From a bacterium (GTDB taxonomy: Bacteria > RBG-13-61-14 > DATKZS01): a DNA stretch of 64,000 nucleotides. Made by a program: the position numbers and the translations under genes. Shown piece by piece: positions 14,946 to 64,000 of the stretch. The stretch spans positions 288,001 through 352,000 of the forward strand of contig CAXXFL010000001.1 of the NCBI GenBank assembly GCA_963674965.2, in the 5' to 3' direction. The notes under the pieces were generated by a model. The model was given only the letters and a program-made list of their open reading frames with translations. It had not been told where the DNA came from and made no database searches. Each line of letters opens with the position of its first letter. Position 1 is the stretch's first letter.

Positions 14946-15103
14946 GTTCGGCCTTTCAAGATAAGAGCGTGGTTAAATGACGTCAACATAAAAGTTATTG
15001 TACCGCAACTCGATTATAAAGGCCATGGCGCGGCCTGGCCCGCTTGATAGGTTAATTGGCAATTGATAAGATTGTGTTGCCAGGTGAGCATCTTGCAAAA
15101 GTT

Positions 15104-15232
15104 CCGCTTTGGAATGCGGCGGCTCGACGCCGCTTTTCTTCCGAGCGGCTTGACGCGAGGCAAGCCGCTATATTGTTTGGCCTTGTCAAGCCAAGGCCAT
15201 AGAAAGCGGTCTCAAGCGACCGCACTCCTAAG
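15104..15232. repeat. REP-like multi-hairpin repeat, intact copy
   Basis: Near-identical to 61073-61095 joined to 62548-62653. Terminal inverted ends CTTTGGA(A/G)TGCGG...CCGCACTCC(T/A)AAG and four internal hairpins. Confidence 0.9.
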
Positions 15233-15283
15233 CTGGACTTTTGTAAGAAGCTCAGGTATAGAGCTTTTTTCGGGAATAAAAAG

Positions 15284-60550: not shown

Positions 60551-61033
60551 TCATGGCAGATTGTCCAGATCGGTACTCACGCCCGAGAGGCTGGTTTTTT
60601 TAAGTTCCTCCCGCGAGGCCAGTATTTCGAGGGAGGATATCCGGGGAATGTTCCTTATCCGACCTATCGCCTCGGCCACGGTTTTTTCGTCCATGCCATG
60701 GACCATGATGTACACGCACCAGGGGTAGCCGTCCGGGTGAGACCTGTGATAACAGTGGCTCACGGCCTCGATGGCCGCCGCGGCTTCACCCGCCGCCTCG
60801 AGGCCGGCCTCGTCGGTCCGGGCGATAACCATGGCGTTGTGCTCGTAGCCCATGGGCTGGTGGCGGACCGAGGCCGAGAAGCGCCTTACCTTGTTCTCGC
60901 TTATGAGGCGCGAGATACGGGACAATACCTCCTCGACGGTGATCCCGAGCTTCCCCGCCAGGGCGTTGAAAGGCTCGGCCTCAATCTCGAGGCCCTTGGC
61001 CGCCGCGTCGATGAATTCCCTGTCCGTTACCAT
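60551..61033 (-). CDS. ahbB: Siroheme decarboxylase subunit AhbB (NirH-like)
   Basis: Lrp-like N-terminus, NAM, VSHCYHR, MVHG and ELKKTS motifs. Confidence 0.85.
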   Translation of the reverse strand: MVTDREFIDAAAKGLEIEAEPFNALAGKLGITVEEVLSRISRLISENKVRRFSASVRHQPMGYEHNAMVIARTDEAGLEAAGEAAAAIEAVSHCYHRSHPDGYPWCVYIMVHGMDEKTVAEAIGRIRNIPRISSLEILASREELKKTSLSGVSTDLDNLP

Positions 61034-61072
61034 GCCGGCTGTTTCCTCTTTCTAGAGCCTCTTGTATAAGTC

Positions 61073-61095
61073 CCGCTTTGGAGTGCGGCGGCTCG
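61073..61095. repeat. REP-like repeat, left fragment (split by IS)
   Basis: CCGCTTTGGAGTGCGGCGGCTCG matches 15104-15126 with one mismatch. Confidence 0.9.
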
Positions 61096-62543
61096 TGTAC
61101 AGACCGGAGACATGCTTCACAAGTGTTCGGGCACATAGGTAACATATTTCCTCGCTTGCTCGCGCTCCTGCTATTGACCTATTTTTCCTCGACCTAAGTT
61201 TATCTATGCATCGATCACGTGGCCAGTCAAGGGCGGCGCAGCCGTCCCGCAGGGATTTACCCTTGACGGGCCTCGTGGAGATGCTATCGTCCTCATGGTC
61301 GAGAAAACCTTTTATCACGTTTGCCTCCAGCTATGGTCTCGCAGATCGACGACCATGATCCGTTGGCGGCAGTAATAAACCTCGATCACGCCGTCCACTT
61401 GTGTATTTCGCAAGCCGACCTTTTCACCAACGAAGGCCCGCCCCACTGGATAAAACTCGCCTTTGATTCTAACCGCCCCGCCCGGGTTCACCTTGCAAGT
61501 CGGCCAATCATCCCGATACCAGACTTCGGGCAGAGTCTCGGGATAGGCAAAGGGGCTCATCGCGTAACGGCTGGCCGGCGTGTTCATGTCCAGGGCCTCG
61601 TGGGGACGTTCATGGTTATAGCAGTCGCGAAAACGGTCGAAGGCTTTCTGACAGTCGTTCAGGTCGCCGAAGTTGCGTCCCCTTATCGCCTCCTCCTTAA
61701 GGGTCCGGTTGAACCGCTCGTTCTTGCCCTGGGTCTGGGGATGAAAGGGACGGCCGTGGCTGATGCCGACGCCGAGCCTGATCAGCCAGGCGCTCATGTA
61801 GTTGTAACGCGAGTTCGGCGCGCAGAAGCTCGATCCGTTGTCGGTAAGTATGCGGCTGGGCAGGCCGTAGCGCATGAAGACCGGCGCCAGGCTTGCCCGC
61901 ACGGTGTCCGCCCGTTCGTTGGAGCAGGCGGTGACCGTCAACGCGAACCTGGAGTGGTCGTCCACCACGGTGAGAGGGTGACAGGAACCGGCCGCCGTCG
62001 GAAAATGTCCCTTGAAATCCATCTGCCACAACTGGTTGGGAGCCTCTCGTTCGAAACGCTTCATGGGACCGCGAGCCTTGCGCTGGGCGTCCCGCAGCCT
62101 GCCGTTGCGGTCGAGGATCGCCGTGATCGTGCTCGGCCTTGGCACTTCGTCGTGACCAAGATCGATCAGCCGCCGCTCGATTTTGCGCCCTCCCCAGGTC
62201 GGATGCTCGTCGCGAACCGAAAGCACCAACTGCTCGACCTCCGGGCAAACACGCTGGGGAGATCGCCTGGGACGGCGGGACCTGTCACATGCCCAGTCCT
62301 CTTCACCGCTTTGCCCACGGCTGATCCACTTGTAGCCGGTGCGGCGACTGATACCGAATCGACGGCATAACTCGCTTATGTTGGAACCTGGCTGCATCGC
62401 TAAATAAACAAAATCCTTCCTCTGAGACACTTCGGTAACCTCATTCCATGGCATCTTTCTTCTCCTGTATTGACATACAGAAGAATGTACCAACTGTTAC
62501 CCATGTCTCCGAACACCTGTTACCCATGTCTCCGGTCTGTACA
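61096..62543 (-). mobile_element. Complete IS481-family insertion sequence (1,448 bp)
   Basis: Perfect 19-bp TIRs TGTACAGACCGGAGACATG (61096-61114 / 62525-62543), TGT...ACA ends, subterminal repeats, and CTCG duplicated at 61092-61095 and 62544-62547. Confidence 0.95.
61315..62454 (-). CDS. IS481-family DDE transposase
   Basis: MPW-E..., HTH SELCRRFGISR-TGYKW, WQMDFKG, DDHSR, TDNG and HPQTQGKNERFNRTLKEE. Confidence 0.95.
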   Translation of the reverse strand: MPWNEVTEVSQRKDFVYLAMQPGSNISELCRRFGISRRTGYKWISRGQSGEEDWACDRSRRPRRSPQRVCPEVEQLVLSVRDEHPTWGGRKIERRLIDLGHDEVPRPSTITAILDRNGRLRDAQRKARGPMKRFEREAPNQLWQMDFKGHFPTAAGSCHPLTVVDDHSRFALTVTACSNERADTVRASLAPVFMRYGLPSRILTDNGSSFCAPNSRYNYMSAWLIRLGVGISHGRPFHPQTQGKNERFNRTLKEEAIRGRNFGDLNDCQKAFDRFRDCYNHERPHEALDMNTPASRYAMSPFAYPETLPEVWYRDDWPTCKVNPGGAVRIKGEFYPVGRAFVGEKVGLRNTQVDGVIEVYYCRQRIMVVDLRDHSWRQT

Positions 62544-62653
62544 CTCGACGCCGCTTTTCTTCCGAGCGGCTTGACGCGAGGCAAGCGGTTTTATTGTGAG
62601 GCCTTGTCAAGCCAAGGCCATAGAAAGCGGTCTCAAGCGACCGCACTCCAAAG
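62544..62653. repeat. REP-like repeat, right fragment (split by IS)
   Basis: Matches 15123-15232 apart from a few substitutions in the middle and near the end. Confidence 0.9.
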
Positions 62654-62699
62654 TGGCTATGCCGCCAAAAAAAAATGGCTTTTACAAGAAGCTCTCCGC

Positions 62700-63167
62700 T
62701 TAAACCTCGAACTTGACCCCGAGCTTAAAGGATTTTCCCTTGGGCAGGACCCGAACGTCCTGGAGCCCGGCCCGCTCGGTCACCCGCTCGAGCACGGCCG
62801 TACGGGCCTCCTCGTTTTCCGCGATCACCGTGAACCAGAGGTTCCACTCGTGCTCGCGAAGATAGGCGTGCGTGATCTCCGGATAATCCGCCATTATATC
62901 ACGGGCGTCCTCGACCCGCTCCGGCGGAAGCTTGGCCGCCACCAGGGTACCGCTCATGCCCCAGGCCGGATAATTCACGATCGGGCCAAGACGCCGCACC
63001 ACGCCCAGGTCCCACATCCGACGGATACGGGCGATGACCTCGTCCTCGGTCAGCCCGAACTTCCCGCCCAGCGCCTGAAAAGGACGGGGGACAAGCGGGA
63101 CCTCGAGCTGTATCTCGTTAAGTATCTCACGGTCGAGGTCGTCGAGTTTGTCGCCGCTTTGAATCAC
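62700..63167 (-). CDS. ahbA: Siroheme decarboxylase subunit AhbA (NirD-like)
   Basis: D-LDREILN-IQ-PL-PRPF, TLVAA, THAYLREH-WNLWFT and FKLGVKF motifs. Confidence 0.85.
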   Translation of the reverse strand: MIQSGDKLDDLDREILNEIQLEVPLVPRPFQALGGKFGLTEDEVIARIRRMWDLGVVRRLGPIVNYPAWGMSGTLVAAKLPPERVEDARDIMADYPEITHAYLREHEWNLWFTVIAENEEARTAVLERVTERAGLQDVRVLPKGKSFKLGVKFEV

Positions 63168-63182
63168 CTCGCCTCCTTTTTC

Positions 63183-64000
63183 TTACGTTCCGCCGCCGTG
63201 GGCGCAAAAGGGCTCGGCCGCCAGGTCGTCGCCCGTGACCGCGTAGGCCCTTGCCCGGCAGCCCCCGCAAACCCGGATGTAACCGCAGGCGCCGCAGGCG
63301 CCCTTGTAGCTTTTAAAGTCGCGCAGTTTGGCGAAAAGCTCCGAGCGCTCCCAGATTTCCCTGAAAGAAGCCTCCTTCACGCTCCCGGCCTTGACCGGGT
63401 AATAGCCGCAAGGAAAAACGTCGCCCTTGTAGCTTACGAACACGAAACCAACGCCCGCCAGGCACCCCCTGGTCCGCGCGTTAAGGCCGAAGTGCTCGAC
63501 GTCCACCGGGATGCCGTCCGCCTTGGCCCGCTGCCGTAGTATCCTGTAGTACTGGGGCGCGCAGGTGGGCTTGATCTCCATCTTCTCGTCGCGGTTTTTC
63601 TCGTAGATATAATTGAGGACCCGCTCATAGTCCTCGGTCCCGATCAGTTCCTGGTCGCCCTCGCCGCCCCTGCCGGTGGGCACGAGCATGAAAACGTGCC
63701 AGGCGTCGGCCTCGATCTTTTTGATGAGATTGAAAACGTTTTCCAGGTCGTGAAGGTTCCTTCTCGTGAGGGAGGTGTTGATCTGGACCTTGATTCCCGC
63801 CTCCTTCAGAATCCTCACGCCGCGAAGGCTTGACTCGAAGGCCCCCGGCTGGCGGCGGAAGTCGTCGTGAACCGCGGCCGCCGAGCCGTCCAGACTGATC
63901 GAGCAGGTCTTGACGCCGGACTCGAGAAGCCTCTTGGCGACGCTCTCGTCCACCATGGTGCCGTTGGTGGACACGGCGGCGCGAAGTCCAAGGCCGGTCA
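63183..64000 (-). CDS. ahbD: Radical SAM/SPASM haem b synthase AhbD (5' end outside window)
   Basis: SISLDG-HD-FR, LVPTGRG, PTCAPQYYRI, GCLAG, PCGY and CGAC-CGGCRARAY motifs. Upstream of ahbA/ahbB. Confidence 0.82.
   Translation of the reverse strand, partial: TGLGLRAAVSTNGTMVDESVAKRLLESGVKTCSISLDGSAAAVHDDFRRQPGAFESSLRGVRILKEAGIKVQINTSLTRRNLHDLENVFNLIKKIEADAWHVFMLVPTGRGGEGDQELIGTEDYERVLNYIYEKNRDEKMEIKPTCAPQYYRILRQRAKADGIPVDVEHFGLNARTRGCLAGVGFVFVSYKGDVFPCGYYPVKAGSVKEASFREIWERSELFAKLRDFKSYKGACGACGYIRVCGGCRARAYAVTGDDLAAEPFCAHGGGT

Follow-up and report, generated by a model that had tools for sequence, protein, structure and literature searches.

The window, by which we mean the whole analysed stretch of 64,000 nucleotides, contains a 1448-bp insertion sequence (IS) that splits a copy of a 186-bp MITE. 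In the region 60551-63974, a radical SAM/SPASM gene is followed by two co-oriented nirDL-like genes, and the MITE and the IS are located in the short gap that separates these two. The gene group is probably a haem biosynthesis operon, on which the MITE and the IS may possibly exert a polar effect. Excision of the IS and of one CTCG copy rebuilt GGAGT-GCGGCG-GCTCGA-CGCCGC-TTTT, identical to the empty copy near position 15104, which confirms the preliminary description of an insertion into the loop of the first hairpin (H1) with a 4-bp CTCG duplication. The duplication corresponds to bases 2-5 of the 6-nt loop, and its centre coincides with the hairpin axis. The features of the locus are summarized in Table 1.

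Table 1. Features at the insertion locus and at an empty copy of the host repeat, with positions in the window
Feature	Position	Strand	Remarks
Second NirDL-like gene, downstream neighbour	60551..61033	-	MITE and IS lie between both genes
Host MITE, left part (end GAGCCTCTTG...)	61055..61095	+	
Target hairpin H1, left half	61080..61095	+	GGAG tag, stem GCGGCG, loop start
Target-site duplication CTCG, first copy	61092..61095	+	
IS481-family insertion sequence, 1448 bp	61096..62543	-	one of nine near-identical genome copies; NCBIfam NF033577, 279 bits
TIR downstream of transposase gene	61096..61144	.	42 of 49 bp matched, outer 19 bp perfect
Transposase gene, 379 aa from ATG	61315..62454	-	HTH region N-terminal, triad D146-D205-E246, beta-strand domain C-terminal
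TIR upstream of transposase gene	62495..62543	.	motifs repeated internally; putative transposase binding sites
Host MITE, right part	62544..62694	+	188 bp in total minus the IS; window copy without flanking duplication
Target-site duplication CTCG, second copy	62544..62547	+	
Target hairpin H1, right half	62544..62558	+	loop end, stem CGCCGC, T run
MITE hairpin H2	62569..62586	+	overlap with 12-bp H1-centre mimic; target use 0
MITE hairpin H3	62600..62619	-	7-bp stem, minus-strand loop GCTTGA; target use 0
MITE hairpin H4, inverted partner of H1	62627..62644	-	stem GCGGTC, loop GCTTGA; target use 0
NirDL-like (siroheme decarboxylase-type) gene, upstream neighbour	62700..63167	-	
Empty MITE copy, 168-bp short variant	15086..15253	+	AGGT duplication on flanks

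The insertion sequence and its transposase

As in other members of the IS481 family, a single open reading frame of the 1448-bp element encodes an IS481-type DDE transposase. The ends of the element are TGT...ACA with terminal inverted repeats (TIRs), as expected for IS481, and TGT ends have been described as a feature of IS3 and IS481 (bioRxiv 2022.12.17.520857). The TIRs were originally taken to be perfect, which holds for the outer 19 bp but not for the full length, with 42 matches in 49 bp. The transposase gene has an open frame of 392 aa from a TTG at 62493, or 379 aa from the ATG, and in a profile search the protein scored 279 bits against the NCBIfam IS481 model (NF033577; cut-off 224), in agreement with the earlier view that the gene is intact. 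With the IS3 and IS21 models, the scores were below the respective cut-offs. The residues D146, D205 and E246 were invariant in 80 aligned sequences. The structure model of the transposase had a pLDDT of 85.7, and the top Foldseek matches were 8b4h, 7svw and 8q4d, with IstA and TnsB as the closest folds. A promoter scan returned three weak plus-strand matches, none of which was interpretable.

In one public sample, which may be the source, the read depth over the IS was approximately 8-12x that of the flanks. The IS was assembled as one 1450-nt contig in this sample, none of its contigs spanned the whole IS locus, and the sequencing runs X1 and X2 yielded short pieces only. Read joints skipping the IS were considered as an empty allele at the window locus; this was rejected, as other, empty MITE copies are the simplest source.

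The host repeat is a MITE

The host repeat is a non-coding MITE with a 186-bp consensus, 78 copies and inverted ends of approximately 15 bp. A duplication of 4-5 bp was observed for 45 of the 61 copies with both ends found, and a search of Rfam gave no match for the repeat. The extent first assigned to it, 15104-15232, is too small: the MITE covers 61055-62694 in the window and 15086-15253 in the empty copy. The characterization of the repeat as REP-like needs to be modified in a similar manner. A hairpin of the repeat is indeed targeted (9/9), but it is located inside a MITE and is not a free RAYT-type REP.

H1 and H4 are short, GC-rich, intergenic palindromes headed by GGAG and arranged as inverted partners, and the GTAG or CGTC tag of canonical REPs was not observed; in the available text of two REP papers (PMC8266576, PMC3733652), the word GGAG was not found. 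A cognate RAYT was sought in the source genome, and none of its five Y1 transposase loci is flanked by the hairpin. In a set of 32 loci examined from a longer list, a related GGAGTGCGG hairpin was present about 100 bp past the Y1 gene at one locus. The host hairpin is REP-like, not a proven REP. One Y1 (IS200/RAYT-like) gene (L002:1240-2251; G000 C1:1588139-1591480) is flanked by a different 124-bp hairpin repeat family, in both direct and inverted orientation.

The catalogue of hairpin positions in the genome is dominated by the MITE, as 78 of 80 positions represent H1 of a MITE copy, and all 70 genomic GCGGCG-N6-CGCCGC sites fall on catalogued positions. The H1 hairpin was also found outside the source genome, in 8 of 12 further genomes from the phylum, where it frequently forms inverted pairs. 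Since the same hairpin stands in different surroundings in these genomes, it is probably older than the MITE.

The same 15-bp ends as in the MITE were found in an element of ~1.37 kb with two identical copies, which encodes DUF772 and DDE_Tnp_1. Its IS5/IS1182-like transposase scored below all IS5 and IS1182 cut-offs, and a clean duplication was not seen. The element is intact at G000 C6:305099 and C1:87746 (L006, L007), both with the same left flank, and decayed pieces were located near C1:951242-952063 and C2:466349. One of the intact copies and both decayed pieces directly adjoin MITE copies. The ~1.37-kb element is the likely, though putative, mobiliser of the MITE. Three other MITE copies (G000 C7:490735, C7:680716 and C6:84959) contain an insert of 56-119 bp at the tagged end of H4, surrounded by a CTCC-type short direct repeat. 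No further copy or parent element of these inserts was found in the genome, and they are possibly the scar of a second element targeting the same MITE.

All genomic copies of the IS occupy the H1 loop

Nine full copies of the IS were identified in the 6.5 Mb genome, with 0-2 substitutions relative to the window copy and a 1-bp deletion in one of them; no solo IS ends were found in the genome. The near-identity of the copies suggests that the element has been recently active. All nine copies were collected, as had been recommended in the preliminary description, and 9/9 are inserted at the same 4 bases of the H1 loop, from which the empty repeat can be rebuilt. None of the nine is located at an unrelated site, which had been named as the sign of a chance insertion. 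Five copies are oriented in H1 as in the window and four are reversed. The duplication is CTCG in seven copies, CTTG in one and mismatched in one (G000 C2:628815, CTTG on the left and CTCG on the right), for which later mutation, conversion or recombination are the readings offered. The target-site duplication is thus 4 bp in eight of nine copies, which is inside the range for IS481 (2-15 bp, mostly 6; PMC10045372).

The genome contains 78 H1 sites in 6.5 Mb, as compared to 188,480 CTYG tetramers and 5900 GC-rich perfect hairpins. For eight independent events, the odds of obtaining the pattern by chance are approximately 1e-27 given a required CTYG tetramer, and approximately 1e-16 if any GC-rich hairpin serves. 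As a control, we analyzed 14 other multi-copy repeat families of at least 600 bp, for which one copy in all was located near a MITE. Thus, the evidence is strong and we conclude that the insertion pattern represents real site-specific targeting and is not due to chance. Selection against other insertions could have sharpened the pattern.

The occupied MITEs differ by 0-23 nt in pairwise comparisons (mean 12.8), and for seven of the nine, the nearest MITE copy is an empty one. At least eight separate landings are indicated, as the host MITEs are up to 23 bases apart and no IS copy has more than 2 differences from that in the window. The divergence of the host MITEs rules out the amplification of a single insertion by the MITE, except for one pair. 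The two members of the pair, G000 C3:274460 and C5:401202, have an identical MITE (with a rare first-base variant) and an identical IS allele in the same orientation, while their flanks are unlike and each has its own duplication. They probably represent a joint hop of the MITE and the IS, as a 1.6-kb composite using the MITE ends; alternatively, the IS may have landed twice, in twin MITEs, or gene conversion may be responsible.

Relatives target hairpins in other repeats

Relatives of the element, 43-55% identical, were gathered among the matches listed: species genomes and metagenomes contributed 80 loci each, and a further 8 loci were from plasmids. A total of 169 loci were examined (one own copy included), of which 109 had both ends and flanks. 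Four of these, with flanks that are reverse complements, were excluded as likely artefacts of assembly. A clean duplication was lacking in 49 of the loci with both ends, which were left unscored, and 56 were scored. Using a stem of at least 8 pairs as the criterion for a hairpin, the sites were located in a hairpin for 46 of the 56 scored loci among the matches listed, as compared to 44/1100 flank controls and 22/1120 shuffles. After clustering at 90%, the corresponding number for these matches was 30/38. The 10/56 sites under the 8-pair threshold, again among the matches listed, were the element's own 6-pair site and those of nine relatives. Two plasmid copies among these, from Cupriavidus and Acidovorax, are plainly outside hairpins. 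In seven loci (L114, L122, L133, L140, L190, L023 and L051), the left and right flanks are reverse complements of each other, which probably reflects long inverted repeats misassembled from short reads.

The duplications in the 56 scored loci from the matches listed were 5 bp (38), 6 bp (15) or 4 bp (3). In the relatives, the cut usually misses the hairpin axis by 2-4 bp, yields duplications of 5-6 bp and is at a fixed distance from a one-sided motif, which means that a symmetric model is not general. Among the matches listed, CCCTCTCCC...GGGAGAGGG repeats account for most of the targets. In the same matches, the left flank contained a CCYYYCC tract in 101/142 cases versus 18/1110 controls, and the third-strand motif was present in 33/113 clusters versus 1/1030 controls. 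These target motifs correspond to the BoxC/PIT triplex motifs compiled in PMC4666352. The H1 hairpin class was the target in 0/113 clusters of relatives from the same matches, and BoxC-like sites are nearly absent from the source genome (4 loose matches). In some genomes of Chloroflexota (L093, L099/L100), two IS copies are located a few hundred bases to ~2 kb apart, inside BoxC-type repeats that neighbour each other. Based on the sequence comparisons, we suggest that palindrome targeting is a clade-wide trait with the BoxC repeat as the commonest target, a trait published so far for one IS481 element within the literature searched.

The best relatives with DNA context, from species genomes and metagenomes among the matches listed, are 54-55% identical, and the nearer proteins P0002-P0006, which have the SF motif and are 63-75% identical, are available as sequences alone. 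The element was found in 0/40 related genomes, the junction pattern gave no match in viral contigs, and the protein tree neither placed the element nor ordered the target changes. A target switch in the lineage of the element is thus putative. Residue S208 aligns with A188 of the PFV integrase, which contacts a target base (PMC4005685). The subsequent residues 209-211 are SFC in the 1448-bp element and PWG in 123-126 of 127 relatives, and SF(C/S) characterizes a 6-member sub-lineage nested in the CW group of the 120 closest proteins. Candidate specificity residues may be those directly following the second catalytic Asp, together with residues of the C-terminal domain at ~315-379, a hypothesis for which the link to the target comes from one element.

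Recognition of the target site

The intact copies in the genome number 66 for H1, 68 for the H2 mimic, 56 for H3 and 46 for H4, and insertions were observed at H1 alone. For eight events, the exclusive use of H1 has a probability of approximately 0.015 versus H4 alone and 6e-4 versus H3 and H4 together. One or two of the four H1 copies with a CTTG loop are occupied, so the loop sequence is not the filter. H4 differs from H1 in two stem pairs near the cut, and the mimic differs farther out. Since neither the sister hairpins with a tolerated loop nor bare CTCGA are used, the reading of a palindrome of ~14-18 bp is favoured.

Our main interpretation, to which we assign a probability of roughly 0.7, is that the 1448-bp element is a site-specific IS481 element, in which one DDE transposase captures a palindrome of ~14-18 bp with a centred 4-base cut in a MITE-borne target. 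According to this model, a single DDE transposase assembled on both IS ends would capture the palindrome GCGGCG-G-CTYG-A-CGCCGC, and strand transfer would be staggered by 4 bases and centred on the axis, resulting in either orientation. The specificity would come mainly from the stem sequence, read on both sides of the cut, and a bendable or extruded centre may assist recognition. In the source genome, the target would be available only within the 186-bp MITE, which would spread fresh intergenic landing sites and has probably carried the IS along once. It is plausible that the host repeat serves as a putative "safe harbour" for the IS. The element would be part of a wide palindrome-targeting IS481 clade near ISRm20 and ISEc19, the lineages of which use different repeats.

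A less probable explanation is that the transposase reads structure first. It would recognise the tip of a hairpin or cruciform in its extruded form, or single-stranded DNA folded at a fork or terminator, with the stem sequence largely irrelevant and H1 the best exposed hairpin. Consistent with this, the relatives insert at or near the tips of unrelated hairpins (BoxC-like, CCTGTG-type in ISRm20, GTCATTCCCGC-type and CTTTTCTTTG-type), the folding of the MITE is far stronger than that of shuffled sequences (z -4.9 to -8.3), and the T run after H1 is terminator-like. However, of the hairpins in the genome, 5900 are GC-rich and perfect and 139 have a 6-nt CTYG-centred loop, and H1 alone is used. 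H4, which equals H1 in stem length and likewise has a T run and a tolerated loop, was used in 0/9 cases. H1 might be more extruded or exposed than H3 or H4 in the folded MITE, for which alternative folds are predicted. The sequence reading and the structure reading are not fully separable from genomes alone.

We consider it improbable that the transposase binds a motif in one flank, for example on the GGAGTGCGGCG side, or a bound host or RAYT protein, and cuts at a fixed distance with the palindrome being incidental. Such one-sided binding would agree with the BoxC-targeting relatives, in which the IS end is located 12-14 nt from CCYYCACCC, off the hairpin axis, in 15 of 28 measured cases among the matches listed, and with the conserved upstream REP described in the SBW25 paper (PMC11708052). 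The cut in the 1448-bp element is, however, exactly on the axis, H4 is unused although it also has GGAGTGCGG, and the hairpin flanks none of the Y1 transposase loci of the source genome (0/5).

It is highly improbable that one or two chance insertions were multiplied by an IS-carrying MITE or by gene conversion, which would account for the identical MITE and IS at C3:274460 and C5:401202, with different flanks and separate duplications, but fits this pair only: both orientations occur, and host MITEs of different sub-types, up to 23 nt apart with IS copies at most 2 from the window copy, refute it for 8/9. The suggestion that the IS prefers CTCGA or CTCGAG, combined with purifying selection against harmful insertions, can practically be dismissed, since CTCGAG is abundant (10,762 sites) but the target is CTCGAC or CTTGAC, one copy duplicated CTTG, no copy is outside the hairpin despite 50,987 occurrences of CTCGA in the genome (0/9 at the other ~50,000), and the other repeat families show no clustering in the MITE.

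The four similar hairpins per MITE, of which one is used, represent a natural experiment on long-site choice by a plain DDE transposase, and the determinant is thus testable with few target variants. The system also illustrates a nested dependence, in which a MITE provides the landing site of another element and has probably transported it once. A broader and tentative reading, which we regard as possible but doubtful, is that a phylum-crossing IS481 clade (the ISRm20/ISEc19 group) obtains long-site specificity from one small DDE protein, without an ATPase or targeting gene, and that its main landing pad is the triplex-forming BoxC/PIT repeat. Retargeting of lineages to other palindromes would then occur by a few changes, either next to the second catalytic Asp or within the C-terminal domain, and the 1448-bp element would represent such a lineage, now dependent on a MITE for the seeding and movement of its site. 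If true, the clade would offer an integrase scaffold that is compact and can be retargeted, and would connect a transposon to the genome instability associated with BoxC.

Comparison with known systems

In the preliminary description, the targeting of REPs was not known for IS481, but it has already been published for an element of Pseudomonas fluorescens SBW25 (pflu2158, pflu4347, pflu4873 and pflu5832; Ngan et al. 2024, PMC11708052). This element is 1.3 kb with 49-bp repeats, and is described as inserted at one REP position with a 4-bp duplication. Compared by description, the target of the SBW25 element is a RAYT-type REP or REPIN, whereas that of the 1448-bp element is a GGAG-headed hairpin in a 186-bp MITE, used in both orientations. 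In the mainly open-access literature, no paper on an IS481 element targeting a MITE hairpin or BoxC was found.

In other families, the targeting of REPs is known for IS3, IS110, IS4, IS256 and IS5 members (PMC1525189), including IS1397, ISKpn1 and ISPsy8 (IS3), IS621, ISPa11, ISPpu9/10 and ISRm19 (IS110), and ISRm22 (IS4). As described there, all copies of these elements are located at one point of a palindromic repeat, like those of the 1448-bp element. Insertion is at the palindrome axis for ISRm22, and in both REP orientations for ISPsy8. The transposases belong to families other than IS481, which is mentioned 0 times in the available text of that paper.

The closest named elements are ISRm20 of Sinorhizobium and ISEc19 (yagA) of E. 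coli K-12, with 47% and 46% identity over the whole protein and the same type of ends. ISRm20 is inserted in a hairpin loop with a 5-bp duplication at the two loci examined. ISRm20 and ISEc19 differ from the 1448-bp element in their target sequences, in the 5-bp duplication and in having PWG rather than SFC after the second Asp. One end of ISEc19 abuts a BoxC half-site (L104:336-430; MG1655 ~282,050-282,140), and triplex motif no. 3 of PMC4666352 (282,101-282,136) is located ~40 bp beyond this end. In the text available from that study, transposase remnants near the triplex motifs are reported as not found.

In the structure model, the HTH, the DDE core and the C-terminal beta domain of the transposase appear to be shared with IS21 IstA, TnsB, MuA and retroviral integrases, with a low global TM of ~0.4, and the 1448-bp IS has no room for a partner ATPase or a targeting gene. 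Thus, the basic phenomenon, an IS481 element at a fixed point of a REP, is already known. The distinct features here are that the site rides in a MITE, that the 4-bp cut is centred and that the sister hairpins are unused.
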